From positions 512,001 through 576,000 of the forward strand of contig OY969564.1 of the NCBI GenBank assembly GCA_963701095.1: DNA of 64,000 nt, in the 5' to 3' direction. Each line of letters starts with the position of its first letter. Position 1 is the stretch's first letter. The notes beneath the pieces are model-generated. The model saw nothing but the letters and a program-made list of their open reading frames with translations. It was not told where the DNA came from and did no database searches. The translations under genes and the position numbers were made by a program. This DNA is from an uncultured Methanoregulaceae archaeon (lineage in GTDB: Archaea > Halobacteriota > Methanomicrobia > Methanomicrobiales > Methanospirillaceae). Shown piece by piece: positions 35,685 through 57,200 of the stretch.

Positions 35685-36773
35685 TTAATTCTTTTTTCTT
35701 TTTACGGCTGTAATCAGGAGGGCTCCAAACACGCCAGCTATCGCAATTAACGGAGAGAGAGCCATGCCAAAGGGTGCTTTAACCATTACTGGGGAGACAT
35801 CGGTCGTTTTGTTATCGGCTATGACAACATCCATGGATACTGTCAGGTAACCGGGTGCTTTAATATTAATATTATGTGTCCCGGGTGCCACTCCATTCAG
35901 GGTCACCGGAGTGGTCCCATCAAGTATTGAATCGACATAGACAGATGCACCGAGCGGGGTTGAAGAAATTACTAGTGATGCCCCACTTGGCACAGTCGGA
36001 GGTGTTATCTGTGGTGTTGCCGGTGCCCCGGTCACCGTTGTTTGTGACGGCATGATAGTTGATGTCGTCAGGTTCGCATTGGAAGCAACGATCGTCAGCA
36101 TCTCTGTCAGGCTGTTAGGCAACGTCGGACTGCTAAAGGTAATACTATAGGTCCCGGGAGACATGTCCACGTGGAATCCAAACTGGAAGTATCCATTGGC
36201 ACTGACAGGCGCGTCGTAGGTATGCATAAGATTTCCGTGAGCATCTGTTATTTTGATCTCAATCGTGTTAGTTGCAGATTCTACGTTTCCCGTAAGCTGA
36301 ACATAATTATTAAGAACTGCGGGATTAGGTGTAACGGTTGCATAAAAACCCGGCTGTCTGAGGAAGATAGAGGCAGAGGAATTGATCGCCGGGTTACTGA
36401 GGTCATAGACCGTAAGCGTATACCGTGAAGTATACAATTGACTTGCACCAACTGTTCGCCCAGTGTCCCAGATAAAATTCCATGTTCCTGATGGATCGGT
36501 ATGGATCGTATCCCCAGTGCCCGCTACCCCGGTAGGGGCGTAAGGAGGTACGCCATCAGCGGGAAGACCGGGGCCGGTAAGAACGATTACCGTAGTATTT
36601 CCTACATTGTTCGTGCCATCCAATAGGATACTGTCACCGATGTAATAACTGCCGTCTCCCCGGTAAGATATGGACATAGAGCCACTCTGGCCTGATACCG
36701 GTACAATGCAAACCATCAGTACAACGAGAAGAAGGAGGCCGCATATGAGAACCGGCACTTTTTTTGAACACAT
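35685..36773 (-). CDS. PEGA-domain surface protein
   Basis: Signal peptide, ISSTPLGASVYVD..GTTP..PGTHNI..PGY, tail ALSPL-TM-KRKK. Confidence 0.8.
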   Translation of the reverse strand: MCSKKVPVLICGLLLLVVLMVCIVPVSGQSGSMSISYRGDGSYYIGDSILLDGTNNVGNTTVIVLTGPGLPADGVPPYAPTGVAGTGDTIHTDPSGTWNFIWDTGRTVGASQLYTSRYTLTVYDLSNPAINSSASIFLRQPGFYATVTPNPAVLNNYVQLTGNVESATNTIEIKITDAHGNLMHTYDAPVSANGYFQFGFHVDMSPGTYSITFSSPTLPNSLTEMLTIVASNANLTTSTIMPSQTTVTGAPATPQITPPTVPSGASLVISSTPLGASVYVDSILDGTTPVTLNGVAPGTHNINIKAPGYLTVSMDVVIADNKTTDVSPVMVKAPFGMALSPLIAIAGVFGALLITAVKRKKN

Positions 36774-36946: not shown

Positions 36947-38978
36947 GTGACTGACGTCATCCTGGTCGTAAAAACCGGAAATGCGCAGCTTAAAAGTAAA
37001 ATATCCAAGATATCGCGCGAATTTTCCTATGACGAAACAGCATACAATCTTCCGATCTCTTTTGCACTGACTGGCGTAGCCGTCCATGACAAGAGCACTG
37101 CCGCCACTGTTTTTACAAAGACCGGTGACAACCCACTCGTGGCGTCCGAATGCCTGCTTGCAGAGGCTACAGCGGCCACAGGAAAAGAATCTGCTCCGTT
37201 TACCGGCTTTATCAGTGATACGGTGATACGGAAACTTGGTTACTCGCTTGTTGACGGGAGTATTCTTGGACTCTCACTTATTGTAGGCACACCTGAAAGT
37301 GCTGGCAGTGCGGCGGCCATATGCCGCGAACTCCAGGAAAAATATATGCTCACGTTCCTTGCAGGTGGCGTTATTCCGACACTTTCCTCTGCCGGTGTAA
37401 AACTTGGCCTTGATTACCGTCTTATCCCCCTTGGATCCAAGCCCCTTCATGGTGTCCATTTTGTGGATATCGTTGCCCGGGTTGCCATGATGTTCGGAGG
37501 CGTTTCCCCAGGAGATACTGGTCGCCTCCTTGCCTATGCAGCGGAACGTGCAAAAGCCATCGTTATTGTCTTTCCCGGGTTAACTGACGAAGAAATAGCT
37601 TTTGTCGATGGCATGCGAGTGCTCGGGTTTCCCATCCTCTCCCTCGGGGGCTATGAAGGTGGAGAATGGACCACGGCCACTCCTGATACCATCGTTCGTA
37701 CGGGTATGGACCTCAAAGGCATCCGTGTTAATGTTACAGCCATTCCTATTCCCATGGGTTGCTCTCCTGCCTTTGAAGGAAAAAGTATACGAAAGGAAGA
37801 GATGCAGGTCGAGTTTGGCGGGGGCCGATCACCTGCTTTTGAACTCTTGCGGATGAAAAATCCCGGCGAAATTGAAGATGGTATGGTTACGGTCATCGGT
37901 CCGGAGATCGATTCCATGAAAGAGGGGGGTGCCTATCCCCTTGGTATAATTATCGAAGTGACCGGAAAATCCATGAAGAAGGACTATGAACCGGTACTTG
38001 AACGCCGTATCCATAATTTTGTTAATTATGGCGAAGGATCATGGCACGTTGCCCAACGGGATCTTATCTGGGTCAGAATATCAAAAGAAGCGTTCGCAAA
38101 AGGTGTAAAAATTGAGCACCTGGGTAAACTCCTTGCCAGTAAGTTCCGGATGGATTTTCCCCAGCTGCTTGACGCTGTCGCTGTCACTCTTATCACGGAA
38201 AAGGAAAAAGTCCTTGTCGGAAAACGGGAAGCGGAGACAATCTATGCCGATAGGGACGCCCGGATCAAAGGCATGCGGGATCACGAAGTTGATACCTATT
38301 ATTCCTGCACACTCTGCCAGACTTTTGCTCCTAACCATGTCTGTATTATCACACCTGAGCGGCCTGCTCTCTGCGGGGCAATCAGACTGGCTTGATGGCA
38401 AGATTGCGTTTGAAATGTCTCCTGCAGGAGCAAACCAGCCGGTCGAGAAAGGATCACTTATCAATGCCCAGAACGGGGAGTTTGAAGGCGTCAACCGGTT
38501 TGTCAAGAAAGCAAGTCATGGTGAGATCGAGCGATGTTCCCTTTATAGTGTTATGGAATACCCCATGACCTGCTGCGGCTGCTTCGAAGTTATAGCACTT
38601 ATGCTTCCCGAAGTCAACGGCATCATGGTAGTCAACCGTGAATACAAAGGAATGACACCCTCCGGCATGACATTTTCTACTCTCGCCGGGACCATTGGCG
38701 GCGGTGCCCAGACCCCGGGCTTTGCCGGGATCTCAAAGAATTATATCTTATCGGATCGGTTCCTCCAAGGTGAGGGAGGTATCGAACGCTTGGTATGGAT
38801 GCCTTCGCAGCTGAAAGACGAACTCAAGCCCCGGCTCGGTCCTCTCCTTACCGCAAAAGGTCATCCGGATCTTTTTGACAAAATCGCTGATGAGACCATA
38901 GCAGAGACCATTGAGGATTTAACAGACTTCCTGAACCGCGTCTGTCACCCGGCCCTTGCGATGAAACCGTTGATGTGA
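36947..38978 (+). CDS. acsB: acetyl-CoA synthase, bacterial-type AcsB architecture, one frameshift at ~38386
   Basis: GTG start after GAGGGG; TAYNLP, FTGFISD, AMMFGG N-terminal domain; A-cluster ligands CTLCQ..HVC..LCG and TCCGCFE; AISWLD broken by one extra A. Confidence 0.92.
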
Positions 38979-38988
38979 GGCACACAAG

Positions 38989-39930
38989 ATGATTCCTGAA
39001 CCGCATTTTGGCTGGACCGGCACGGTAGGTGAAGTTATCCTTGGGGCAACCCATTCTGAAGGTGGTACGCGATCGCGTTCGTACAGGATAGGTGGTGGCA
39101 CCACACTTCCCTTCATGGAAAAAGAACAAAAATCCTCTTCACCACTGGTCGCTTTTGAGATATGCGATGATCCCCGGTATTGGTCCCCGATTGTCAATGA
39201 TTTCTGCAGCGATCTTATTCACGATCCGGGCGCGTGGGCAAAGACGGCTGAGATTGCCTATGGCGCTGATCTTGTCAGGCTTTGTCTTACGAGTACCAAG
39301 CAACGGGATTTTTCTGATATAGTATCACTGGAAAAGACAACGGAAACTGTCCTTTCATCGACAACGCTTCCCCTCATTATCGAAGGCAGCAACGAACCTA
39401 AGATCGACAGCGAGGTATTCCAGAAATGTGGTGAGATCGGCCAGGGTGAACGCCTGCTGCTTGGAACCGCCGAAGCCGGAAGGTACCGGAGTATTGCCGC
39501 CGCGGCCCTTGCCTATAACCATGCTATAATCGCCCAGTCTCCTATCGATATTAACCTCGCAAAACAGCTCAATATCCTGCTCAAGGAAATCGGGGTGCCG
39601 CGGGACCATATCGTCATCGATCCCTATACCGGTGCACTTGGCTATGGCTTTGAGTATTCATTCTCTGCTATGGAGCGGATCCGGTTTTCTGCACTCAAAG
39701 GCGATGTTGATCTTGCGATGCCTATGATTTGCGCACCTTCGGATTCGTTGACCATTAAGGAAGTCCGTGAAGCAGATGCAAGCACTCGCAACGCCATTGC
39801 TGTGGAATGGGAATTTACGACAAGTCTTGCTGCAGCAGTCGCTGGTGCGGAAATTGTCTGTGTCAGGCATCCTGATACGGTAAAACGACTGAAAACAGCA
39901 TTTGCAGGCCTCAATACCCGAGGTGTATAA
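38989..39930 (+). CDS. acsD: corrinoid iron-sulfur protein small subunit (AcsD/CdhD)
   Basis: IGGGTTLPF, SPIDINLAKQLN, IDPYTGALGYGFEY, MERIR. Confidence 0.92.
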   Translation: MIPEPHFGWTGTVGEVILGATHSEGGTRSRSYRIGGGTTLPFMEKEQKSSSPLVAFEICDDPRYWSPIVNDFCSDLIHDPGAWAKTAEIAYGADLVRLCLTSTKQRDFSDIVSLEKTTETVLSSTTLPLIIEGSNEPKIDSEVFQKCGEIGQGERLLLGTAEAGRYRSIAAAALAYNHAIIAQSPIDINLAKQLNILLKEIGVPRDHIVIDPYTGALGYGFEYSFSAMERIRFSALKGDVDLAMPMICAPSDSLTIKEVREADASTRNAIAVEWEFTTSLAAAVAGAEIVCVRHPDTVKRLKTAFAGLNTRGV

Positions 39931-39932
39931 TC

Positions 39933-41267
39933 TTGCCGCTCAAGGCACTGGACATTTACAAGCTCCTGCCAAAGAAGAACTGCAAGGAATGCGGTGATCC
40001 CACCTGCCTGACCTTTGCCATGAAACTTGCCGCGGGAAAAGCAGACCTTGATCTCTGCCCCTATCTTGATGACAAAGCAAAAGCGGTGCTCGGGGCAACA
40101 ACCCGCCCGCCGATTAAACTGGTAAAAATCGGGGTAGGTGAGCGATCCTTTTCGGTCGGCGAAGAGTTTGTTCTTTACCGGCACGACAAGACATTCTACC
40201 ACCCTCCGGGAATTATGTTTGCGGTTTCCGACATCCAGAGCGACGATGAGATTTCTGCTGTGACCGCCCGGGTACGGGATGATACCCTGACCCGCGTCGG
40301 CGCTGACCTGAAATTTAACGGGACGGCGATTGTCAATACAACCGGAACCGTTGAAGCCTATGCACGGGCCGTTGCCGCTGTTGAAAAAACGGCCGGTCTT
40401 CCTGAAGTCCTCATATCAGATAACGCGCAGGCCCTTGCTGCTGCTCTTGTCCTCTGTGGCAGTTACCGGCCGTTGATAAGCGCAGCAACACCGGAAAATT
40501 ATAAGCAGATGTGTGCGCTTGCTAAACAGCATGGCTGTCGCCTGGTTGTCCGGGAACCTACCCTTGAAGGGCTTGCCAAGCTTACCAAAGACTGTGCGGC
40601 TGAAGGGGTTTCGAATGTTGTTCTTGACCTGGCACCAAAGAACCTTGGGGATTATCTCTCCCGCTCGACCGCCATACGGCAGCTTGCCATTACCCGTGAA
40701 GTCCCGGATCTGGGCTATCCGGTCTATCTGGATGCGACTGCTTTTGAAGACCAGGATGCGGCAATTGCTCTTGGTATCGTCAAGTATGCTTCAGTGATTG
40801 TTACATCACCACTATCTCAGCCGTCAGCTAAAGCGGTGCTTACACTTCGCCAGAACATCTATACCGACCCCCAGAAACCCATCCAGATGAACCCTGGCCT
40901 TTACCGGGTTGGTACACCGGGAAAAGATGCACCTGTACTCATGACGGTGAATTTCTCCCTGACCTACTTCACACTCCAGGGCTACCTTGAATCCACCCGT
41001 ATCCCCTGTTTCATGCTGATCGTCGATACGGAAGGTCTCTCAGTACTCACGTCAGTTGCTGCCGGTAAACTCAATGAATCCCTTGTGCGGGATGCCATAA
41101 AGAAATTCGGGGTCGAAAACGAAGTATCACACCGGAAACTGATTATTCCCGGATACGCAGCGCCTCTTTCTGGGAGAATTGAAGAAGCTACCGGATGGAA
41201 AGTGCTGGTGGGACCCCGTGATGCTGCTGAGATCGGTGATTTTCTTGTACAGGAATGGAAACCCTAA
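39933..41267 (+). CDS. acsC: corrinoid iron-sulfur protein large subunit (AcsC/CdhE)
   Basis: LPKKNCKECGDPTC...CP 4Fe-4S motif, LRQNIYTDPQKP, TVNFSLTYF, VLVGPRDA. Confidence 0.95.
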   Translation: MPLKALDIYKLLPKKNCKECGDPTCLTFAMKLAAGKADLDLCPYLDDKAKAVLGATTRPPIKLVKIGVGERSFSVGEEFVLYRHDKTFYHPPGIMFAVSDIQSDDEISAVTARVRDDTLTRVGADLKFNGTAIVNTTGTVEAYARAVAAVEKTAGLPEVLISDNAQALAAALVLCGSYRPLISAATPENYKQMCALAKQHGCRLVVREPTLEGLAKLTKDCAAEGVSNVVLDLAPKNLGDYLSRSTAIRQLAITREVPDLGYPVYLDATAFEDQDAAIALGIVKYASVIVTSPLSQPSAKAVLTLRQNIYTDPQKPIQMNPGLYRVGTPGKDAPVLMTVNFSLTYFTLQGYLESTRIPCFMLIVDTEGLSVLTSVAAGKLNESLVRDAIKKFGVENEVSHRKLIIPGYAAPLSGRIEEATGWKVLVGPRDAAEIGDFLVQEWKP

Positions 41268-43175
41268 ATGCGTACTGTTACTTTCCTTCCCAGTTATCAT
41301 AAGATAGAAGCTCCCAGGGGCACGACAATCCTCGATGCAGCACAACGTGCCGGCATCAATATGAATGTTGTCTGCGGCGGCATTGGAAAATGCGGGAAAT
41401 GCGTGGTCTATGTACAATCCGGGAAAGCTGAGTTTGATAAACAGAAATTTGGCCGGTTTTTTACTGAAGAAGAATTGAAAAAAGGTGCCTGTCTTGCCTG
41501 CGTTACCACGATCCAGGGAGACCTCCAGGTAATTATCCCGGAAAGTACGCTGATCCAAGAGCAGAAGATCCTCGTTGAAGGGACGGAAATGGAGATTGAG
41601 TTTCACCCGTCAGTGAAAAAATACTACGTTGAACTCCAACCGCCAACACTTGCCGATCCCTCACCAGACCTCTCCCGTCTCCTCTGGGGTATCCAGAAAA
41701 GGGGCGGACCGGTCGCAGAGAAAATGTACGCACCTCTTGAGGTGATGAGAAAGATCCCCGCACTTCTGCGGCACAGCGACTGGAAGGTTACCGGCACTAT
41801 CGCCCTTGTGCCCGGGGGTTACCGGCTTATCGATATCCAAGAAAATGATACCTCACACAGGCTCTTTGGTGCAGCCGTGGATCTGGGGTCAACGACCGTT
41901 GTCGTATATCTCTGGGACTTAATTACCGGGAAAATAACTGCGGTTGCTTCCAATTACAATAAACAGATCAGTTGCGGGGAAGACATTCTTGCACGCGTGA
42001 ATTATGCACAGAAGAACGGGATTGCAAAACTCCAGACGCTTGCGGTTGAGAGCATCAATGCTGCGTTGACCTCTGCTGCGAATTCCGCTGGGATTGATCG
42101 GGAAGATATTTACGAGGTCGTGGTTGCAGGAAACACCGTCATGACCCATATGATGCTCGGTATCGACCCAGGCTACATTATCAAGGAACCCTACGTACCA
42201 GTGGTCCAGCGGGCTCTTTCCGTTGCCGCTGCACGTATAGGAATTACCTGCAATGACAATTGCGGGCTCTTCGCCTTTCCGGCGGTTAGCGACTTTATTG
42301 GCGGTGATATCATTGCCGACATTCTTGCCTGCGGTATGAGTGAAAAGGATGATATTTCTCTTCTCGTAGATATTGGAACGAATTTCGAGGTCGTGCTTGG
42401 CAATCGCGACTGGATGTTTTCCTGTGCTGGCGCCGCAGGGCCGGCTCTTGAAGGTGGGGAAGTGCTCTTTGGTATGCGGGCAAATCCCGGCGCTATCGAT
42501 AAGATTTCCATTGATCCGGTTACCCTTAAACCGGTCTATTCCACCATCAACAGTATCAAGCCCCGGGGTATCACCGGTTCCGGGCTTATCGATATTCTAG
42601 CCGAATTGCTTACTTCCGGAGTTATAGACCGCACAGGCCGGATTAACACGGAGTATGAGAATCCCCGGATCCGTACAGGTGTCCATTTCCCTGAATATGT
42701 TATTGCGTTTGCAAAAGAGACTGATATCGGAAAAGACATTGTCATCACGGAAAATGATATCAAGAACCTGATTATGAGTAAAGCCTCCATTCACGCTGCC
42801 TGTGTGACACTCATGAAAGAGGCAGCGGTTACTCGGTTTGATATCGCTACTATCTATTTTGCAGGTGCCTTTGGTAACTATATCAACAAGAAAAATGCAA
42901 CGACTGTGGGTTTGATCCCCGAGATCGATCTCGATCGGATAAAAAACATTGGGAACGGGGCAGTGGCGGGTGCAAACCTCGCTCTTATCAATCGCAGGCA
43001 GCGGAAACTGCTCGATGGTATCGCAGGAAGGATAGCTTACATCGAGCTCAATGCAGAGCCTTCATTTATGGACGAATACACGTCAAGTGCATTTCTCCCT
43101 CACACTGATCTCTCGCTCTTCCCCGGAGTCCAGGCTCTGCTTGAGTCAGAGCGTGGGAAAAAGGAGGAAACCTGA
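41268..43175 (+). CDS. acsV: reductive activator of corrinoid protein (RACo/AcsV, 2Fe-2S + ASKHA)
   Basis: CGGIGKCGKC..C ferredoxin domain, DLGSTT, DIGTNFE, AAGPALEG, AGAFG. Confidence 0.9.
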   Translation: MRTVTFLPSYHKIEAPRGTTILDAAQRAGINMNVVCGGIGKCGKCVVYVQSGKAEFDKQKFGRFFTEEELKKGACLACVTTIQGDLQVIIPESTLIQEQKILVEGTEMEIEFHPSVKKYYVELQPPTLADPSPDLSRLLWGIQKRGGPVAEKMYAPLEVMRKIPALLRHSDWKVTGTIALVPGGYRLIDIQENDTSHRLFGAAVDLGSTTVVVYLWDLITGKITAVASNYNKQISCGEDILARVNYAQKNGIAKLQTLAVESINAALTSAANSAGIDREDIYEVVVAGNTVMTHMMLGIDPGYIIKEPYVPVVQRALSVAAARIGITCNDNCGLFAFPAVSDFIGGDIIADILACGMSEKDDISLLVDIGTNFEVVLGNRDWMFSCAGAAGPALEGGEVLFGMRANPGAIDKISIDPVTLKPVYSTINSIKPRGITGSGLIDILAELLTSGVIDRTGRINTEYENPRIRTGVHFPEYVIAFAKETDIGKDIVITENDIKNLIMSKASIHAACVTLMKEAAVTRFDIATIYFAGAFGNYINKKNATTVGLIPEIDLDRIKNIGNGAVAGANLALINRRQRKLLDGIAGRIAYIELNAEPSFMDEYTSSAFLPHTDLSLFPGVQALLESERGKKEET

Positions 43176-43176
43176 T

Positions 43177-44217
43177 ATGGTAAAGGTGATAGCACCACCG
43201 TACTCCCGTGCTACTGGTGTGGGGGCCCTCCCGCATACCGACCCGGTGCTTGCGTGCGATGACGTTCTTAATGTGTTTCCCGAATTTCCCTATACACCGA
43301 CGCTTCCTGACCACGGATTGCTCGAAAGTATTGTTTTCAACGACGCAGCACAACTCCCGGGCCAGCTTATCCGCGAAGGCAGGTTGCTTTATGATAGTAA
43401 CCGGGATAACACCACTGCGATGGAACAGGTATACTTGGACTTTGTTGATAAGAATTTTTTACCTTACTGCCTCGATACCGATCATGCATCCGCATTTTGC
43501 GAGATGATGACCCGGCAATTCCCTCAGGCTACTATTCTAAAGTGCCAGGTAACCGGACCGGTCACTTTTGGGATGCAGGTTGTTGATGCCGACAAACGGC
43601 CTATCTATTACGATAGTCAGCTGGCAGACGTACTCTCCAAAATGATTGCTCTGAAAGCCCGCTGGTGTGAAAACGAAATGCTAGTACGGACCGGGATTAA
43701 AGAGACGTTAGTGGTACTTAACGAACCCTACTTTGCTTCGCTTGGATCCTCAGTTGTGCCGCTTGACCGTGGAACAGTTAAGGCAGGCTGGGAGGATATC
43801 GCGTCGCTTGTACAAGGTGGCCTTGGTGTTCATTGCTGCTCGAATACGGACTGGGAGTTTATTATCGGCCTCGACCCCTCAGTTATCTCTCTTGATGCCT
43901 ATGCAACAGCGACAGAATTCCTGCTTTACGTAGACGCAATTACGGGATATATGGAACGGGGGGGCGTTATTGCGTGGGGGATAGTACCTGCACAGTATAA
44001 GCTTTTTGCAGCTGAGACTGTAGATTCGCTCTATGCACGGTACCTTGCGATACGCACCCAGCTGACAAAGCACATCCCGGAAGAACTTTTTGATGCCCAA
44101 TCACTCATTACGCCTTCATGCGGGATCCGGTTTGCTGACCGGAATGGCGCAAATGAGATCCAAGGCGCTGCGGCTGAGATTTCCTGTCGGATCCGGGCTC
44201 TGACAAACCTTTCCTGA
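43177..44217 (+). CDS. core (folate-independent) methionine synthase, MetE C-terminal-like, MesB-like
   Basis: AGGAGG RBS then ATG at 43177; ATGVGALPH, KCQVTGP, NEP, GVHCC, AWGIVP, ITPSCG (HxC...C zinc ligands); single barrel of ~346 aa. Confidence 0.8.
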   Translation: MVKVIAPPYSRATGVGALPHTDPVLACDDVLNVFPEFPYTPTLPDHGLLESIVFNDAAQLPGQLIREGRLLYDSNRDNTTAMEQVYLDFVDKNFLPYCLDTDHASAFCEMMTRQFPQATILKCQVTGPVTFGMQVVDADKRPIYYDSQLADVLSKMIALKARWCENEMLVRTGIKETLVVLNEPYFASLGSSVVPLDRGTVKAGWEDIASLVQGGLGVHCCSNTDWEFIIGLDPSVISLDAYATATEFLLYVDAITGYMERGGVIAWGIVPAQYKLFAAETVDSLYARYLAIRTQLTKHIPEELFDAQSLITPSCGIRFADRNGANEIQGAAAEISCRIRALTNLS

Positions 44218-44229
44218 CACCTGATAATT

Positions 44230-44997
44230 ATGTCCACACACCCGTTTACCATTGCACTCTCCGGAAAAGGTGGTACCGGTAAGACTACGGTAAGTTCTCT
44301 TCTTGTTCGGTCTTTTATCGAAGCCGGTGAAATTCCGGTACTCGCTGTTGATGCGGACCCAAATGCAAACTTCCACGAGGCTCTGGGTGTTGAAGTGAAA
44401 GAGACGCTTGGCAGTATGCGGGAAGAAGCCTTTTCCCGGAACATCCCACCGGGTATGAACCGGCACGATTATGTGAGGTTCCGGTTCCGTCAGGCGCTCG
44501 TCGAATCCAACGGTTTTGATCTTGTTGCCATGGGCCGTCCTGAAGGTACGGGATGCTACTGTTTTGCAAACGATCTTCTCTCCGAATGTATGCTACAGCT
44601 TGAACGGCAGTACCGTTTTATTGTGATAGATACCGAAGCAGGAATGGAGCATATCAGCCGGGGCACAATTGGCAAGCCGGATATTTTGTTAATCGTGAGC
44701 GATCCTGGTGCACGAGGACTGCGGACAATTACCCGGATCCGTGAGATCGCTATACAGCTCGGGCTTGAACCTTCACGAATCCATGTTGTGTATAACCGGT
44801 ATAAATCGGGAGCAGCACCGGTGGATATAGGAAACGAACTTCCGATCGCGATAATTCCAGAAGATCCGGTAGTCGAGGCAGCCGATCTTGCAGCGACACC
44901 GGTATCACAGATTCCGGAATCAAGCCCGGCACGACGTGGGGTCCGTGCTCTGGCAGAAAAACTGATAAAAATGGCGTATACCCGAAGTGAGATATAG
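44230..44997 (+). CDS. cooC: CooC/AcsF-type nickel-insertion ATPase
   Basis: GKGGTGKT, DADPN, GCYC, DTEAGMEH. Confidence 0.92.
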   Translation: MSTHPFTIALSGKGGTGKTTVSSLLVRSFIEAGEIPVLAVDADPNANFHEALGVEVKETLGSMREEAFSRNIPPGMNRHDYVRFRFRQALVESNGFDLVAMGRPEGTGCYCFANDLLSECMLQLERQYRFIVIDTEAGMEHISRGTIGKPDILLIVSDPGARGLRTITRIREIAIQLGLEPSRIHVVYNRYKSGAAPVDIGNELPIAIIPEDPVVEAADLAATPVSQIPESSPARRGVRALAEKLIKMAYTRSEI

Positions 44998-45049: not shown

Positions 45050-45592
45050 TTACAGGAAAACAGCCACGGCAATAACGGTCGTCCATAACCCGTTCTTATC
45101 ACCTTGTGCTGATTGACAGACATGTTTTGTGCGAATGATTTTACCGCTTGCCTTATATATCTGTTCACGTTCCTGCCAGGCAGCATTTGCATCAAATTCA
45201 ATACCCAGCGTTGTCGCAAGCATAGTCGCTGCAAGATCCTCGGCATATTCTCCTGTCCGTTCCTGGGTCTCACCATATGCATGGTGCTCGGAAAGATACC
45301 CATATTCTTCCACGTCTTTGGGTAGGGCAAGCCCGACAGCCGCAGAAACCAGACGGTTAGGTTCATTTGTTTCGTTCCTTGCCATTACACAGAAAGTAAT
45401 GCCACCAGACTGGAGTTCCCGCAGGCCGGTGGCGGACTGGATCTGTTTACATTTGGGAGGGAAAATGCTTGATACATACACAAGGTTACATTTTTCAATA
45501 CCAGCTTTACGAAGAGTGAATTCGAACGATGCAAGACGATCTTTATGGATTCCCACCCCCTTAGTGAAAAAGATCCTCTGAGGAACATACAT
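45050..45592 (-). CDS. pdaD: pyruvoyl-dependent arginine decarboxylase
   Basis: [31 protein letters not shown] with Ser-Ser cleavage site, YGYLSEHH. Confidence 0.92.
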
Positions 45593-45653
45593 AATTTTTA
45601 TAGCACCCATGTCTTTTTTTAATTTTTGGTTATTTTCATAAAAGAACTCATTT

Positions 45654-46402
45654 TCAGCAAGTTTGGTTTTTCCGGTCAGATCGGGGACATAAAACCGGCA
45701 TATCTTTGACGATGTTGAGAAGTTCTTCCATATGGTCGATGGTAAAATCGGCCCCAGTACTGTCCCGGGTTTTCGAAAACCGGTCCCGTACCGCGCATAA
45801 ACCGTACGGATACCGAGTTTTCGGCAGGGTTCAATGTCCCGGCGGGGACTGTCTCCAACAAAAAGAGCTTCGGAAGGTTTGGCACCAACAGCGTCCAAAG
45901 CGGCAAAGAACGGCTCATGTGCCGGTTTTTTGACTCCAATACGGTCAAAAGTCACCATTGTATCAAAAAAAGACAAAAGGCCACATTTATCAAGCCGAAT
46001 CCGGGCATCCGCATATTCCGCATCGGTTACAATTGCCATGGCGTACCCATGATCCCGAATGACCTCAAGTGTTTTTCTGACTCCGGGATAGGGCATAATG
46101 TTCCGGAGTTTTTCACGATGATAGATCCGGCAAGCATGCTCGAACATTCCGTTTGTCGGGATACGACGTTCCTCCATATATTGCCGGATATTTTCGGTCG
46201 ATTCAAAACCATGGGTGCTTTCGAGAAAATATAAAAACAACTCGTCGCCATCATCATGACCAAGATGACGCACCACCCCATCGCAAGCAGATATCTGGGC
46301 CCCCACAAGGTCAAAAAGAGTATTGTCCATATCAAATAGGATAGCAATGATACCCTTTTGAAAAAGGTTCTCATCCAGGGTAGTGTTATTCACACAGTAC
46401 AA
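45654..46402 (-). CDS. HAD-superfamily hydrolase, one frameshift at ~45786
   Basis: [18 protein letters not shown]; proper tail YGDRF...[12 protein letters not shown] lies in the shifted frame and stops at 45654. Confidence 0.85.
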
Positions 46403-48274: not shown

Positions 48275-51200
48275 TTACTGTGCTTTTTCGTAGCAGATCA
48301 GTGCTTCTTCGTGTTTGCCCAGTTTGTCGAGCGTGGAACCGACATCGTTCCAGACCTCTTTTCGCTGGGGATCGATTTCAAGGGCACGTTTGAATGACGT
48401 AAGCGCCTCCTGATATTTCTCCAGTTCCTGCAATGCCCGACCCTGGTGGATCCATGCATCGACAAAATCCGGCTGCAGGGCAATCATGGCACGGAACGAC
48501 TCTGCCGCATCCTCGAATTGGCCCAGAGCTTCAAAAGCGCTTCCCCGGGTAAAGTATGCAATCGAGAATGAGGGGTCAATAGCGAGCGCCCGGTCATAGT
48601 ATTCGATTGCACTCTTGTGATCGTTCATGCCGGCAAATGTCATACCCCGCCGGGTCCAGCCAACTGCATTTTCCGGATCCCGTTTAAGTCCTTCATCGTA
48701 CGCCTCCTGGGCTTCAGCAAATTTTCCGAGATCATAGAGGACATTTCCTTTACCAAACCATGCAGTCGCAAGATCCGGCTCTTTTTCAAGGGCTTTTTCA
48801 AATGCTTCAAGAGCGTCGCGGTACATGCCAAGCTCAGCAAGCGAGGTTCCTTTATGGGAGAATGCATCGGCACCATGGGTGTCAAGCTCTAATGCCCGGT
48901 CATAGGACTTGATGGCGTCACGATATTGTTCAACAGCCGCGTATGCCAAGCCACGGTCCCGGTAAAGGTCAGGAAAATCTGGTTTTATGCTGATAGCACG
49001 GTCATATTCCGTGATAGCTGCATCGAAGCTACCTTCATCATACAACGTTCGGGCCTTCAGGTGATGTGCCTGGTAGCAGGATGGGTTTATCTCCAATGCA
49101 CGATCGAATGCCCGTATCGCGCCATCGGGGTTCTGGAGCGCTAGGTACGTCTTTCCTTTCTGGAAGATAGCATCAGCATAACCGGGGCTTGCCGCCAGTG
49201 CCTGGTCGAAAATGGCAAGGGCATCCTTAAACTTACCCAGATGGTAAAGCGCCCTTCCCTTCTCATAGAGTGCCTCCGGGTAATCGCTTTTAATCTTGAG
49301 GGCCGAATCAAACGATGCAACTGCTTCCTCGTACTGTCCCCGGTGTATGAGGGCAATACCTTTGTAATAATAGGATTCCTCAAATTGCCGGTTTATGGCA
49401 AGGGCACGGTTGAACGCTTCGATTGCCTCATCATTCTGTTTCCGGTTCAGGTGGGCACGTCCTTTGTAATAGAATGCCTCAGCAGATTCCGGCTGGAGCG
49501 TCAGGACTTTTTCAATTGCAACAAGTGCTTCTCCGGTTCGTTCGAGGTGGATAAGCGCCCGTCCCTGGTTAAGAAGTGCCAGTGCATAGTTAGGATTGAG
49601 GGTAAGGGCATGGCTGTAACATTCCAGTGCCTCGTCGTACCGGTCAAGGTTTGCCTCGGCTATACCACGATAGAGCCATGCTTCAGGATATTCGTCCTTT
49701 TGGGCAAGTGCCCGGTCAAATGCGGAAATAGCCTCGTGGAACATTGAGACGCCGCAAAGAGCCCGCCCTTTTGCGTAGAAAGCCCGGGCACATTCCGGGT
49801 GCTGGATAAGGGCAGCATCAAAGTTCTTGATCGCTTCCTGATTCCGGCCTAATGCCCAGAAAGAAAGTCCGGCCTGGTAATAGGCACGTTCATCCTTCTT
49901 ATCAAGCGCAATCGCTTTTGTATAACTTATTATGGCGTCTTTGTGACGATCCTGTGCTGCAAGAGCCATGCCTTTCCCGGTCCAGATATACGCGTAGTTC
50001 GGGCGGAGACGGAGTGCATGGTCAAAGATAGTGACGGCATCTGCAGGCCGCTGTAACCGAAGGAGCGCCATACCTTTGTGGTATAATGCTTCGTCATGTT
50101 TGGGACTCAGGGTAAGGGTACTGTCATATGCAGAAACAGCCTCGCTGTACATTCCAAGCGCAAAAAGGGTCCTTCCCTTATAGTAATACGCATCTGAAAA
50201 CTCGGGTTTTAATGCGAGGGCACGATCGAACGCGGTAACAGCATCATCAAAAGTATCGAGCGCAAAATGGGCCCGGCCCATAAGGTACCAGGCATCAGCG
50301 TTTTGCTCATCGGTTTCCAGCGCCTTTTTGTACGAGTCTATAGCGTCACGGTACCTGCCGAGATCGAATAACACCATGCCCCGGTGAAGCAGGCCGGGAA
50401 TCGAACCTGGATCGGAACTGATAACGTGATCGAATGCTTCAATGGCAGCATCAAGTTTTCCTGTTGCTGAAAGGGAGATCCCTTTCCGGTAGAATGCGTC
50501 GTTATTACACTCATTGAGATTAATTTCCTTGTCAAAGGCAAGGATAGCCTCATCGTGCCTCCCAAGCTCTGCGAGGGCAAGACCTTTGTAAAAAAATACC
50601 CCGGAATAATTTTTATCTATGAGCAATGTCTTGTCAAAAGTCTTAACTGCCTCCCGGAACATCCCGAGTGTCGTAAGCGTTTTTCCTTTCTCGAAAAGTG
50701 CATCCGCAAAAACCGGATCAATTTCCAGAGCTGCATCGAATGCTTTTACCGCATCCTCAGTACGTCCGGTCTGCTCCAGCGCTATTCCCTTGTAATAATG
50801 GGTCTTTGCATCTGATGGCCGAAGCGTAAGAGCTGCTGCATAACTACTGACTGCCTCCCCGAATCTTCCGAGCAGGTCCAGCGATCGCGCTTTCTGGAAC
50901 TGCGCGTCGAAATGTTCTGGTACTAGGTTAAGCACCTGATCGAATGCAGCAATGGCATCCTCATAATGACCAAGCCGCGCAAGGACACAGGCCAGTTCGA
51001 ACCAAGCATCGGCATTTTCGGGACTGTACACCAAAAGACGGTCATACGATTCCGCAGCCTCCGCGTACCGTTCCATGGCAGCGAGGGAAGCCGCACGGAA
51101 ATAGAGAGCCCCGGCGTTTTTGGGATCCCCGTCGAGTGCAATATCCAGGGATTCGCACGCGTCCGCGTATTTTGCTGCATAGAAAAGCGCTCTCCCCCGT

Positions 51201-54200
51201 TCGAAACTGGCTACCGGATCTGAAGGTTCAAGTTCAAGCACACGATCAAACGAATTAATGGCTTCCTCATTTTTATTCAGCGCAGCTAAAGCCCGTCCTC
51301 TTTCAAGATAGGAGCGGGCATCATCAGGGCGAAGCGCAATCGCACGATCGAATGCGTTGACTGCAGTTTCGTAATGGCCGATATGCACCAACGCACCGCC
51401 TTTTTTAAACCAGATCTCAGGATCGTCAGCATTGAGGGAAAGTGCCGCGTCAAACGCCATATCCGCATCTTCGTATCGCTCCAGTGCGAGAAGCGACAGG
51501 CCCCGCAGGTAGGCGGGTTCGTAGTTGTCCGTCAGCTGGGTAAAGGCAAGCCTGAATATTTCCTGGGCTTCGTCATGTCGGCCAAGGGACGAAAGGGCTT
51601 TTGCTTTCTCGAAAAGGATTTCACCGTTACCGGGTTCCTTGCCAAGTGCGATATCAAAGAGATGAATTGCCTCTTCGAACTGCCCGAGCCGGGACCATGC
51701 TTTTCCATCAGTAAATAAAAGGGTTATGTCGTGGGGCTCGATCTGGCGGGCTTTTTCAAATGCTTGTACGGCATCATCGTCTTTACCAAGACACTCGGAA
51801 GCAAGACCGCGGTGATACCATGCCCCGAAATGATCTGTTTTTTGGGAAAGCATACGGTCAAATGCGGTGATTGCATCGGTAAATTGGCCGAGGCGTTCCT
51901 GTGCAAGACCAAGATAATAGGCTGCATCGTCAAACGATGCATCCAGTTCAAGGACCCGGCTAAACGAAGTAACCGCTTCTTTATCATGTCCGAGTTCGAG
52001 TAGAGCACGGCCATTTTCGTAATACATTTCCGGTTTCGTATCGTCATGGGAAATCGCCGCAAAAAATGCGTCGACAGCATCGTAGTAGTTGCCAAGACGG
52101 GACAATGCCACGCCTTTTTCGTAGTATGCGATATACTTGTTGCCGTCAATTTCCAATGCGTGGTTAAATGCGGTAACGGCTTCATCATAGTGCCGTAACC
52201 GGGAATGTGCACGCCCTCTGGCAAACCATGCATCGAAATTTGCCGGGTCAAGCCGGATCGCCGCGTCGAAGGTGGCAATGGCGTCGGCATATTTTTTCAG
52301 GTTCGAAAGTGCAATGCCTTTATTGAGAATCGCGCCGACACTAGATGCATTAATGGCAATCGCGGCATCAAACGCAATAATAGCGTCTTTATGTTTTCCA
52401 AGCCGGGCCAGTGCAAGTCCTTTCTCGAAATAAGCCACAGCAAAATTCGGGTCGATAGACGAGGCCATCTCAAATGCCTCGATTGCCTGTCGGTCCCGGC
52501 CAAGTTTGGCAAGCGCACTGCCTTTATCGTAATAGGCGCTTGCATATTTCGGGTTAATAGAAAGCGCCCGGTCAAAGGAGGGGATTGCTTCTTCAAATCT
52601 TCCCATACCGGAAAGTGCTACTGCCCGGTCATACCACCCGTTTGCATTGTTGGGTTTGAGTTCGAGGGCTTTTGTGAGCGCTTCAATTGCAGCCCGTAGA
52701 TTCCCTGCCGATAATAATGCACTTCCCTTCCTGAACCAAGCTGATGAACACGATGGATCTGCTGAAATGACCTGATCAAAACTGTCTATTGCTTCAGCAT
52801 ACCTGCGGAGACCGGCATAGGCTTTCCCCCTTCTGTATGAAGCTGCACTATCAGTCGGTGATAATGCAAGAGCGCGTTCGAATGATTCCAGTGCCTCCTC
52901 AGGGTGTTCCTGGTCAAGCAGGACAGTTCCCTTGAGAAGCCAGACCTCGGATTCATTATTTTCCAGGGAAAGGGACTGCTCCAACGTAACAAGAGCTTCG
53001 TCGGGCTTCGTAAGTTTAACCAGCATACGAGCCCTGTGATAGAGCACTTTAGCATTCTGGGAATCAAGTTCGAGGAGTTTGTCAAATGCCGCAAGTGCCT
53101 GTTTATATCGGCTCAACCCGGCATATGCAAGACCTGTGTGGAACAGCGCATCCCGTATTGAAGGATCATGATCGAGCGCCTGTTTAAACGATCGAATCGC
53201 TTTTTCATATTTTCCTAGAGTGAATAACGCGAGTCCCTTATGGTAATGGGCGTCGGCATGCTCAGGCACATACTGGATCGCTTGATCGAATGCCTCAATC
53301 GCTGCATCATATTTTTTTAACCGGGAAAGCGCCAGACCTTTTTTGAATGCTGCATCAGTGTAAGACTGTTCTAAACCGAGAACCAAGTCGTACGCCCGAA
53401 GTGCCTCTTCGTCATTGCCGATTAGGGCAAGTGCTTCCGCTTTATAGAACGCAGCATCAGCAGATTTGGGATCCAGCACAAGTGCCTGGTCAAACGCTGC
53501 AACTGCCGCTATTCCCTCTTTTTTAAAGTAGAGTGTCTCACCTTTTGCGAGCCAAATAAACGAGTTCTCCGGTTCGAAGGCGAGGGCTCTGTTGATAGCC
53601 TCGAGCGCTGTATCATACTTTTTCACCGCTATAAGGGATCGTCCACGGTAATAATGTATCACAGATGATTCAGGACCAAGTGTAAGGGCAAGGTCAAATG
53701 TTGCGGCGGCGTCCGGGAATCTTTCCAACATATAATAGGTGAGCGCTTTCCTGAACGCATAGTCCTGAAGGGAAGGAGCAAGATCCAGTGCACGTTCAAA
53801 AGCCGGGAGTGCTTCTCCGAATTGTTCCTGGTTGAAAAGGACCAGGCCTTTCTGGTACCATGCAGCTGTACAACTCTCGTCATGCACCAATGCCTGTTCA
53901 AAGGATTCCAAGGCTTCGTTATGTAGGGAAAGGTGGGCGTAAGCAATGCCTTTATAGTACCATGCAGCGGCATTTTTTTCCTCTATGGAAAGCAATTTGT
54001 CAAAGATACCAATGGCTTCCTCCCATCGTTCATTGTGCAGAAGAGATTTTCCTCGGTAGAAAAGGGTAAAGGGATCCTTTGCATTGCGTTTCTGGGCTTT
54101 TGCAAATGATTCTGCCGATTCCTTAAACCGGTTGAGCCGGTAAAGGGCGTATCCCTTGCATGAATATGCACGTGCATTTCCTTGATCATATTCAATAGCT

Positions 54201-57200
54201 CGGTCAAGCGCTATTACCGCATCCTCATATCGGGAAAGATGTACGAGATCGGTACCCATGACAAAGTGGGCGATGACATTTTCCGGGTCAAGGGAAATGG
54301 CCCGGTCAAAAAACCCGACGGCTTCTTCGTACCGCTTGAGTTCTGAAAGCGATTGCCCTTTTTTAACCAGACTGCCAATATGGTTACTATCGATTTCGAT
54401 TGCCTGATCAAAAGATAAGATGGCCTCTTCAAACTTTTTAAGGGCGAAATACGCGCAACCTTTCTCGTACTGGATTCCAACACTTGAACAACCTAGATTG
54501 AGATACCGGTCAAAAAGGGCAATAGCCTCTTCGTATTTTTCCATCCGGGATAGGATAAAACCGGCCTGTTCGAGCGCGTCAGCGTGGTTCGGACTGAGAT
54601 TAAGTGTCTTTGCAAAAGCTGTAATCGCTTTTTCATCCCGGTGAAGTTCGACATAGCAAAGGCCAAGGCGATAAAAATGCTCAGGCGAGGTGGGTTCTAC
54701 TGCACAAGCTTCTTCGTAGGTAGCTGCGGCTTCCTTGAAGCGTTTCAATGCTTCTAGCGCTTGTCCTTTTGCCGTAAGAAGGGGTATGTCACCAGGGGTG
54801 ATGGCAAGTGCACTATCAAAGGCAGAAACCGCTTCCTCGTTTTTACCGATCGCTGCAAGAGCCCGCCCTTTATGGTAGTACGCCGGCGGGTACTTAGAAA
54901 CCAGGTGAAGGATATGATCAAATGCCCCTACGGCTTCTTCATACCGTTGGAGCTCGATCAAATCAAGACCCATGTCAAACCAGGCATGCGTGTTTGAATT
55001 ATCAAGTTCAATGGAACGGGAAAGTGCAGGAACCGCATCTGCATATTCCTTGAGGGCAGAGAGTGCTACACCTTTATAATACCAGGCCTCGGCAAAATCC
55101 GGCTGGATCCCGATTGCCAGATCGGAAGCCTGAACTGATTCTTTGTCCTCTCCCAGGAAATGGAGTGATATTGCTTTATTGAGCGCCGATTCAGCGCTCC
55201 TGGGATCGTATTCAAGTGCCTTTTCAAAGGAGAGAATGGACTCTTTATACATTCCCTGTGCTGCAAACGCTACACCCCTAAGATGGTATACTGAAGCATT
55301 ACCGGGATCAACGGAGAGCGCACGATCAAAAGTTATGACGGCATCGCTGTATCGTTCAAGCTTCAAGAGAGCAGCAGCGTGATAATATACCGCCTTCTTA
55401 AGATGCGAGTCTATCCCTTCTGCCCGGGTAAGACATGTAATCGCGTCATCGTACCCGCCCAGTTCATACAATGCAAGACCCTTGTATTGGAGTGCCTCTG
55501 CAAACGAGGGATTCAGCACAAGGACATGGTCGCAGGCATCAATGACTTCGGAATAATCTCCTCAGCTCGTATAAGGCACGACCTTTCTGGAACCATGCAT
55601 CAGTATGTTCGGGATGTTCGGCAAGGACTTTGTTGAATTCTTTGACCGCCTCCCGGAACCTGCCCAAAGTTGAAAGAGATTCTCCTTTATGGAACCTCGC
55701 CGGCAGGCAGTCAGACTTTATCGAGAGCGCTGCCTCGAAAGAGAGAATTGCATCTTCAAGGTTTGCAAGACCTTCAAAGGCTCGACCCTTCTGGTAGTGG
55801 AGGTTGGGATTTTTCGGATCGATCGCAAGCGCCCGGTCCGTTGCTTCAAGTGCTTCCTGGTACCTGCCCAGGTGAGAAAGGATGAGTCCCCTGAATCGCC
55901 ACGCTTCGGTGAAGTCTTTTTGTAAGTCTGTTGCTTTTGCAATAGAGAACAATGCGTCTTCGTCCTGACCCAGGTTATGCAGGGACATAGCTTTGTTGAA
56001 TGCAGATTCCGCGCTCTCCGGATCGCATTCAAGCGCACGGTCATACGCGTAAATGGAGTCCTGGTACAGGCCCTGGGCGGCCAATGCTACACCTTTAAGG
56101 TGGTGTGCTAAAGCATTACCGGGATCAAGAGAGAGCGCACGATCAAAAGTTATGACGGCATCGCTGTATCGTTCAAGCTTTAAGAGAGCAGCGGCGTGAT
56201 AATATACCGCCTTCTTAAGATGCGAGTCAATCCCTTCTGCTCGGGTAAGAGATGTAATCGCGTCATCGTACCCGCCCATTTCATACAATGCAAGACCCCT
56301 GTATTGGAGTGCCTCTGCAAACGAGGGATTCAGCACAAGGACATGGTCGCAGGAATCAATGACTTCGGAGTATTCTCCAAGATCGTATAATGCACGGCCT
56401 TTCTGGAACCATGCATCAGCATGTTCGGGATGTTCGGCAAGGACTTTGTTAAATTCTTTGACCGCCTCCCGGAACCTGCCCAAAGTTGAAAGAGATTCTC
56501 CTTTATGGAGCCTCGCCGGCAGGCAGTCAGACTTTATCGAGAGCGCTGCCTCGTAAGAAATAATTGCATCTTCAAGTTTTGCAAGACCTTCAAAGGCACG
56601 ACCCTTCTGGTAGTGAAGGTTTGAATTTTTCGGATCGATCGCAAGCGCCCGGTCCGTTGCTTCAAGTGCTTCCTGGTACCTGCCCAGGTGAGAAAGAATG
56701 AGTCCCCTGCACCGCCACGCTTCGGTGAAGTCTTTTTGTAAGTCTGTTGCTTTTGCAATAGAGGACAATGCGTCTTCGTCCTGACCCAGGTTATGCAGGG
56801 ACATGGCTTTGTTGAATGCAGATTCCGCGCTCTCCGGATCGCATTCAAGCGCACGGTCATACGCGTATATGGAGTCCTGGTACAGGCCCTGGGCGGCCAA
56901 TGCCACACCTTTAAGGTGGTGCGCCGGCGCGTACTTGGGGAGAAGAAGCAATGTTTGATCGAATGCCTCTACGGCTTCGCGATACCGCTCCAGTTTCAGA
57001 AGTGAAGCCCCACGGTGGAATATTGCACCATCGATATGGGGATCGCTTTCAAGAGCCTGGTCAAACGATAAAATCGCTTCTTCGTACCTCCCCAGTTCAT
57101 ACAGAGCAAGTCCTTTGTGGTAATGGGCATCCGGATAACTGGACTCAATTTCAAGTGCATGATCATAGGCTTCGATAGCATCGGTGTGATCTCCGGAATC

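Follow-up and report, generated by a model that had tools for sequence, protein, structure and literature searches.

The window analysed here is a stretch of 64,000 nucleotides from an uncultured Methanoregulaceae archaeon (GenBank assembly GCA_963701095.1, contig OY969564.1, positions 512,001 to 576,000 of the forward strand; family Methanospirillaceae in GTDB), and its element of interest is a cluster of six genes, acsB-acsD-acsC-RACo-mes-cooC, between positions 36947 and 44997. The cluster, carried here by a Methanoregula methanogen, is a copy of an accessory cassette with six genes that belongs to the order Methanomicrobiales; this cassette has already been partly described in print and is documented here by gene content, conservation, catalytic motifs, predicted fold and the co-occurrence of its parts. 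It is proposed, following the published model, that the cassette passes the methyl group of acetyl-coenzyme A (acetyl-CoA) via the corrinoid iron-sulfur protein (CoFeSP) onto a thiol, with homocysteine as the most probable acceptor; we give this reading a probability of about one half. The features of the cluster are as follows, all on the plus strand.

36947..38978, +: acsB, long three-domain acetyl-CoA synthase (matches to NF040764 in two frames)
36848/36947-38395 and 38112/38376-38978, +: the acsB frames as assembled (open reading frame list; one gene split in two)
38386..38386, +: single extra A that breaks the acsB frame (alignment of relatives and contigs of sequencing runs)
38989..39930, +: acsD (NF003376, 374 bits against a cut-off of 280; PF03599)
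39933..41267, +: acsC (NF003195, 551 bits against a cut-off of 306; PF04060, PF03599)
41268..43175, +: RACo/AcsV-like reductive activase of corrinoid protein (PF00111, PF17650, PF17651, PF14574)
43177..44217, +: MesB-like core MetE-fold zinc methyltransferase of a Methanomicrobiales subfamily, 346 aa (fold, profile, zinc ligands)
44230..44997, +: cooC/acsF-like P-loop ATPase, presumed nickel-insertion factor for the synthase (PF13614, PF01656)

The coordinates leave intergenic gaps of 10, 2, 0, 1 and 12 nt in order from acsB to cooC, in agreement with the preliminary description, which had reported six co-oriented genes with gaps of 0-12 bp bounded on either side by genes of the opposite strand (35685-36773 and 45050-46402, both minus). 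Its gene names agree with the family matches for acsB, acsD, acsC and the activase, whereas the Mes-like protein is placed by fold and profile comparison and cooC by general matches; its picture of acsB as one open frame does not hold for the assembled gene. The likely start of acsB is a GTG at 36947 with GAGGGG 7 nt upstream. The model NF040764 (705 positions, cut-off 800) is matched with 563 bits over its positions 7-513 and with 317 bits over 506-705, the two parts lying in different frames and being scored separately. The acsB translation contains the motifs C-x2-C-x8-C-x9-C and C-G-C, which we take to be the A-cluster cysteines. Since NF040764 also passes its cut-off in one archaeal control genome, the term "bacterial-type" for this long AcsB refers to its architecture only. 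The activase combines a 2Fe-2S ferredoxin domain with an ASKHA ATPase domain in Pfam searches and reaches 565 bits with NF040756, under the cut-off of 800 of that model. The CooC-like protein matches general P-loop families only (PF13614, PF01656, MinD/ParA-type models under their cut-offs); its translation holds a GKGGTGKT P-loop and a CYC motif, and it shares 31-34% identity with the CooC-like proteins encoded beside cdhA or cooS in relatives. As the preliminary description had stated, the cluster encodes neither a subunit of carbon monoxide dehydrogenase (CODH) nor the pterin-binding AcsE, no cassette open reading frame (ORF) having matched either in the Pfam and NCBIfam searches of the window.

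The same cassette recurs across the order. Long AcsB occurs in 65 of the 81 sampled genomes of the family; 61 copies are intact and over the cut-off of 800 (866-944 bits with NF040764) and four are cut or split, including that of the window's own genome (G000, a single contig of 2.63 Mb). A Mes-like gene was found in the same 65 genomes, always about 5 kb from acsB and on the same strand. Order-wide, 161 genomes were sampled and 61 of them have the Mes-like gene of the cassette, which occurs in five of the six families (26/32, 15/20, 4/12, 3/32, 12/32 and 0/32). A survey of synteny across Methanomicrobiales, suggested in the preliminary description, gave the order acsB-acsD-acsC-RACo-mes-cooC in 13 of 14 loci of the family (G068 has no cooC match) and in all eight loci of four other families, that is, in 21 of 22 loci overall; cooC thus goes unmatched in a single locus of the 22, and CODH-free genomes are among those that have it. 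Flanking genes are conserved within genera only and offer no functional hint. For comparison, a bacterial set of 80 loci was collected by a scan with a 19-sequence alignment, which selects the motif HCCGNTDW, so that Gly222 is present in that set by selection. Within 8 kb of these bacterial homologues, cooS, acsB or cooC was found in four of the 80 loci, and acsC, acsD or RACo in none of the 80. Because the bacterial homologues rarely adjoin acs genes, the tight operon appears to be special to the methanogen clade.

The product of the fifth gene, whose nearest named homologues come from Methanoregula, matches no Pfam or NCBIfam model at E<=0.001, and PDB sequence searches with the protein or with a 59-sequence profile returned nothing significant; its kinship with MetE is drawn from the predicted fold and from profile comparison. 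The AlphaFold2 model, built with 59 homologues, has a predicted local distance difference test (pLDDT) score of 96, and a Foldseek search with this model puts MetE at the top (E about 1e-7). By VIA-align the model matches MetE catalytic domains and core MetE-like proteins with Z 22-26 and a root-mean-square deviation (rmsd) of 3.0-3.1 over 280-293 residues; its residues 1-346 superpose on residues 387-733 of 1xdj, the C-terminal domain of MetE, with Z 25.0 and an rmsd of 3.1 over 293 residues, compared with Z 18.6-20 for UroD and MtaA-type proteins. A profile comparison by hhalign between the family alignment and the genome's own MesA-type protein (probability 97.4, E 1e-11) aligns the motifs K-G/C-Q-x-T-G-P, (D/N)EP and H-x-C, the D/E ligand and the C-G motif. 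By these comparisons the protein is a one-domain MetE homologue that corresponds to the catalytic part and lacks the N-terminal domain for folate binding. The zinc ligands H219, C221, D240 and C315 are invariant in all 134 members of the clade and correspond in the alignments to H-x-C, E and C of the MesA-type protein; the resulting H-C-D-C pattern is the one given for MesB by Price (2021). Relatives at 30-37% identity carry the label "methionine synthase II (cobalamin-independent)" in one source. The window protein scores 147-237 bits (median 194) with the 80 bacterial homologues, and 198 and 191.5 bits with the Dehalococcoidaceae homologues L093 and L081, taken as stand-ins for DET0516. The MesB thresholds given in the same paper are phmmer scores of 130 bits (reference proteomes) and 173 bits (phylogenetic profiling) against DET0516 (Price 2021); the two scores of the window protein exceed both values, which were defined against DET0516 itself and not against the stand-ins.

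The proposed pathway would begin with AcsB, which would cleave acetyl-CoA and methylate the cobalt of AcsCD with release of CoA and CO. The RACo-type activase would bring inactive Co(II) back to Co(I), and the CooC-type ATPase would serve nickel insertion. The zinc enzyme would then move the methyl group from CH3-Co(III) to a thiolate, most probably that of homocysteine to give methionine, and in this genome the CO could be oxidised by CdhA of a separate acetyl-CoA decarbonylase/synthase (ACDS) operon. In this scheme we infer which way the methyl group flows, that the zinc enzyme contacts CoFeSP, and which thiol is the acceptor. The direction from acetyl-CoA through CoFeSP to a thiol is favoured because no pterin methyltransferase is found in the cassette or the genome, because some carriers are free of CODH and because methylation of a thiolate is downhill.

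The first of these points comes from a search of the whole of G000. Its single Pterin_bind (PF00809) protein is a dihydropteroate synthase (TIGR01496, 201 bits against 162.6), so there is no AcsE genome-wide, which leaves AcsB as the sole cassette-encoded route for loading the cobalt. A cooS-type gene and a MetH-type homocysteine domain (PF02574) were likewise not found in this genome. The preliminary description had suggested looking for acsE, cooS and metH as well as for cdhA and a mesA-type gene, and the last two are both present, so that G000 has the status neither of a CODH-less genome nor of one with a sole methionine synthase. The MesA-type gene (PF01717, 300 aa) lies at C1:1614767-1615558. 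The Prismane search returned one gene, with an open frame of 792 aa (C1:223140-224885), which belongs to a complete archaeal operon cdhA-cdhB-cdhC-cdhD-cdhE-RACo at about 222.9-231.8 kb of the same contig and about 325 kb from the window; cdhA reaches 1112 bits with TIGR00314 (cut-off 781) and has cdhB beside it (about 222.9-225.8 kb). The region reads, in order, a cooC-like gene, one ORF without assignment, cdhA, cdhB, cdhC, cdhD, cdhE and a second RACo-type gene. AcsC and AcsD are thus encoded twice in G000, by the cassette and by the cdh operon. "CODH-less", as the cluster had been called, is correct for the operon and wrong for the genome; the earlier interpretation follows the published hypothesis and overstates this one feature.

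As a separate observation on the corrinoid proteins, G000 also encodes HgcA, the corrinoid protein of mercury methylation (C1:1070918-1071991, L140:718-1791; NF040863, 436 bits against 275), which is a third CoFeSP-like corrinoid protein in the genome beside AcsC and CdhE.

Across the family, the Prismane matches fall into three classes, CdhA, CooS and Hcp, and three representatives of the CooS class reach 660-678 bits against TIGR01702 (cut-off 478). By our reading of the tables, 10 of the 65 carriers have neither CdhA nor CooS. Five of these ten, each at least 90% complete (G042, G030, G038, G046 and G074), were checked by direct searches, and neither CooS nor CdhA passed its cut-off in any of the five; all of them carry an intact cassette. 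The cassette in carriers without a nickel-containing CODH (Ni-CODH) would fit an acetyl-CoA cleavage like that of Dehalococcoides. For that bacterium it has been argued that C2 of acetate enters the methyl group of methionine with release of CO, and that the transfer from CoFeSP to the core-MetE protein is direct (Deobald 2020; Price 2021).

Several points weigh against methyl delivery from acetyl-CoA to homocysteine. By the same reading of the tables, CdhA is encoded by 37 of the 65 carriers and CooS, without CdhA, by a further 18 (among these, G009 is known from fragments only). In five genomes cooS follows mes on the same strand, 3-4 kb downstream, with a second cooC-like gene after it in G015; the cassette may therefore work together with CODH, in either direction. 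Nearly all sampled genomes of the family (79 of 81), every one of the 65 carriers included, encode a MesA-type protein (PF01717), so that a second methionine synthase is not needed and methionine supply is independent of the cassette. The window protein has Ala17 and Asn182 in place of the Ser and Asp of its bacterial homologues, replacing the equivalents of two homocysteine-binding residues. The literature found holds no biochemistry, labelling or expression data for any methanogen copy, and the read evidence on the acsB frame, given below, comes from a single study in which one run is maybe the source sample. The preliminary description had gone further and proposed a self-contained acetyl-CoA to methionine module: the presence of the parts, the lack of AcsE and the intact cassettes of the five of five CODH-free relatives tested speak for it, while the complete ACDS of the genome, the cooS genes beside the cassette, the MesA of every carrier and the altered residues speak against its self-contained character.

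The altered residues bear on the nature of the thiol. A FastTree phylogeny of 74 sequences, of the kind the preliminary description had called for, sets the methanogen clade (19 rows, comprising the window protein, 17 orthologues and the representative P0121) on a branch of its own with support 100, and the stem of this clade is long (0.76 + 0.19 changes per column); by BLASTP the Mes-like protein shares at most 38% identity with the bacterial members. The substitutions, counted in the 80 bacterial sequences and in the 134 clade members unless stated otherwise, are the following.

Position 17: Ser in 79 of 80 bacterial sequences; Ala in 121, Gly in 11 and Ser in 2 of the 134 clade members; Ala17 in the window
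Position 40: Trp in 78 of 80 bacterial sequences; Ile, Val or Ala in the clade
Position 42: Gln in 80 of 80 bacterial sequences; Thr in 22 of 23 locus orthologues (not the set of 134)
Position 123: Gly in 80 of 80 bacterial sequences; Cys in 130 of the 134 clade members
Position 182: Asp in 80 of 80 bacterial sequences; Asn in 130, Asp in 2 and Gly in 2 of the 134 clade members; Asn182 in the window

Profile alignments bring position 17 onto the Ser of GS(Y/F)P and position 182 onto the Asp of (I/V)DEP, MetE-type motifs in which, together with the published text, we take Ser433 and Asp599 of MetE to lie. These two residues bind homocysteine in MetE and are described as "mostly conserved" in MesB (Price 2021). 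The chemistry of the cassette could thus be the same with another thiol as partner, the remodelled pocket methylating or demethylating a thiol for which, in a methanogen, coenzyme M is the obvious candidate, so that the acetyl-CoA methyl group would be linked with methyl-coenzyme M without tetrahydromethanopterin (H4MPT) or Mtr. Positions invariant or nearly so in bacteria are altered clade-wide (S17A, G123C and D182N, with W40 and Q42 replaced), the clade sits on its long stem, MesA is retained in all 65 carriers and the tight acs operon is peculiar to the methanogen clade. MetE-family zinc enzymes acting on coenzyme M do exist, epoxyalkane:coenzyme M transferase being an example. On the other hand, the change is not universal: among the 23 locus orthologues, those of G042 and G068 have retained Ser17 together with Asp182, and a third has retained Asp182, so that the Ser/Asp and Ala/Asn states seem interchangeable inside one orthologous group. 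Moreover, Asn is still able to hydrogen-bond an amino group, the near-invariant Glu at position 50 is retained by the whole clade (134 of 134), the conserved neighbours of the cassette include no gene linked to coenzyme M or to another thiol, and growth on acetate is not known for members of the family (M. formicica, for one, does not show it). Another thiol as the partner of the cassette is therefore considered unlikely, and the stricter proposal, in which MesB of Methanomicrobiales is a corrinoid:thiol methyltransferase for coenzyme M or another thiol lacking the amino acid part and not a methionine synthase at all, appears more doubtful still. If it were true, the cassette would connect acetyl-CoA with the methyl-thiol pool of methanogenesis by direct methyl exchange, and neither H4MPT nor the sodium-pumping Mtr complex would take part. 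Arg318 was also considered as a binder of the sulfonate of coenzyme M and was dropped, as MesA-type proteins share an Arg at this position.

The flow could also be reversed. In such a synthetic direction, CO would be supplied by a CODH encoded elsewhere (CdhA in this genome, CooS in relatives), and the Mes-like protein would replace AcsE by loading the cobalt from a methylated thiol, for which methyl-coenzyme M, methanethiol, dimethyl sulfide or methionine are the candidate donors. The Mes-like gene does occupy the slot presumably held by AcsE in bacterial acs clusters, cooS is directly downstream in the five relatives mentioned above (with the second cooC in G015), and some Ni-CODH is present in 55 of the 65 carriers. 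AcsB, too, keeps its N-terminal domain (model positions 7-300), the domain with which bacterial AcsB docks onto CODH. Against these features stand the 10 of 65 carriers without Ni-CODH, verified in five of five tested, the complete ACDS with which G000 is already equipped for anabolic acetyl-CoA synthesis, and the energetics, since by the known chemistry of thiolates and methyl-cobalamin it is uphill, relative to the reverse, to move a methyl group from a thioether onto Co(I). We consider the synthetic direction improbable and retain the transfer from acetyl-CoA through CoFeSP to homocysteine as the working model.

In the assembly the acsB gene is broken. Its first frame ends in ...LCGAIRLA-stop, the stop codon coming three codons past the extra A at 38386, and the second frame goes on with ...SDWLDGK. 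All 11 aligned relatives read ATCAG-CTGG where the window has ATCAGACTGG, and the extra A lies outside any homopolymer run. Contigs of four public sequencing runs (X1, X3, X5 and X6) were compared with the 8150-base cluster. X1, possibly from the source sample, and X3, from the same study, each leave out one base at 38386, at depths of 12.8 of 12.8 and 8.62 of 8.62, respectively; this is the sole indel in 8150 bases, and elsewhere the two contigs match the window exactly. The contigs of X5 and X6, which belong to other studies, cover parts of the cluster and do not bridge 38386. Because the base is missing in the 11 relatives and in the contigs of two runs of the same study, the extra A is most likely an assembly error and acsB is intact in the organism, with read support from this one study. 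The completeness of G000 is estimated at 86%, compared with 96-99% for nine congeners, a shortfall in line with indels scattered over the assembly; in combination with the one indel among the 8150 checked bases, it suggests that frameshift errors are common in the G000 assembly. A cassette in decay, with a real frameshift in acsB and the genes as remnants, is scarcely credible, as the stop three codons past 38386 is opposed by the full-depth contigs of X1 and X3, the intact catalytic motifs on either side of the break, the remaining five genes, which are open and 90-97% identical in protein sequence to those of the nearest relative G057, and the shortfall in completeness, which agrees with scattered indel errors.

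A few observations concern the surroundings of the cassette. The flanking minus-strand gene at 45050-46402 joins a HAD-type hydrolase and a pyruvoyl-dependent arginine decarboxylase in one ORF of 450 aa, while the two are separate genes in the relative G042; over 1382 bases of this neighbourhood the window differs from G057 by one gap, and the fused ORF may reflect a second assembly indel or a lost stop codon. Just downstream of the cassette neighbourhood is an ORF of 2414 aa on the minus strand (48275-55519). In the relatives G015, G012 and G025, a conserved ORF of 334-368 aa without a Pfam or NCBIfam match stands between the cassette cooC and the downstream cooS (L018:13694-14797, L019:6742-7746 and L020:7101-8183). 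Upstream of acsB, a gene for a beta-class carbonic anhydrase lies less than 2 kb away in G012 (L019:17873-18451) and G055 (L030:3600-4289), and a ferredoxin-thioredoxin-reductase-like gene is located just upstream in L018, L020, L028 and L031, accompanied in L020 and L028 by a glutaredoxin gene. A sigma-70 promoter scan gave 15 hits against 10.4 in shuffled sequence and a terminator scan 10 against 9.1, both close to the shuffled level, this type of scan being inapplicable to archaea.

As a putative part of one-carbon metabolism, the cassette is widespread in a major methanogen group of wetlands and peat. Should it cleave acetyl-CoA for methyl supply, a use of acetate carbon is missing from current models and some of these organisms would release CO. 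The window adds an explanation of the acsB frameshift as an assembly error and a separate complete ACDS operon in the same genome, and the comparison with relatives adds an order-wide census of the accessory module, with some carriers that are truly CODH-free and others that have cooS attached. The altered substrate pocket offers a simple test of the published prediction that MesB takes its methyl group from CoFeSP for methionine. A study of CODH/ACS evolution by Adam et al. from 2018 (in PNAS) is said to treat bacterial-type ACS genes in archaea and may bear on the novelty of these points. In the literature found on acsB in Methanomicrobiales, only Price et al. deal with this cluster. They already report that some methanogens have mesB in one operon with acsC and acsD, and their Table S1 gives MesA in 12 and MesB in 6 of 12 Methanomicrobiales proteomes (Price 2021); the genome note on M. 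formicica, in its available part, mentions a complete ACDS only.

Three known systems are close to the cassette. The archaeal ACDS (cdhABCDE) shares with it the A-cluster enzyme family and the corrinoid protein family, and cdhC, cdhD and cdhE of G000 are paralogues of the cassette genes. The cassette AcsB of about 680 aa is much longer than the ACDS CdhC of about 460 aa, whereas the cassette AcsD has 313 aa compared with 412 aa in CdhD; the cassette further differs in having neither the alpha nor the epsilon CODH subunit and in its added zinc methyltransferase. The incomplete Wood-Ljungdahl branch of D. mccartyi resembles the cassette in its AcsB, AcsCD and core methionine-synthase homologue and in the lack of AcsE; this bacterium has AcsB and AcsCD without CODH, AcsE and MetF (Zhuang 2014 as cited in Deobald 2020). 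In contrast, G000 has a complete ACDS with cdhA and a MesA-type synthase, and the methanogen genes form one operon that also holds RACo and cooC. The MesB or core-MetE protein of D. mccartyi (cbdbA481 = DET0516) is like the cassette's zinc enzyme in its single domain of about 345 aa, the MetE catalytic fold, the H-C-D-C ligands and the presence of AcsC and AcsD in the genome. The methanogen protein differs from bacterial MesB in forming a long-branch clade of its own in which Ala, Cys and Asn mostly stand in place of Ser17, Gly123 and Asp182, and its gene is always found in an operon with acsB, acsD, acsC and RACo, always in a genome that also encodes MesA.

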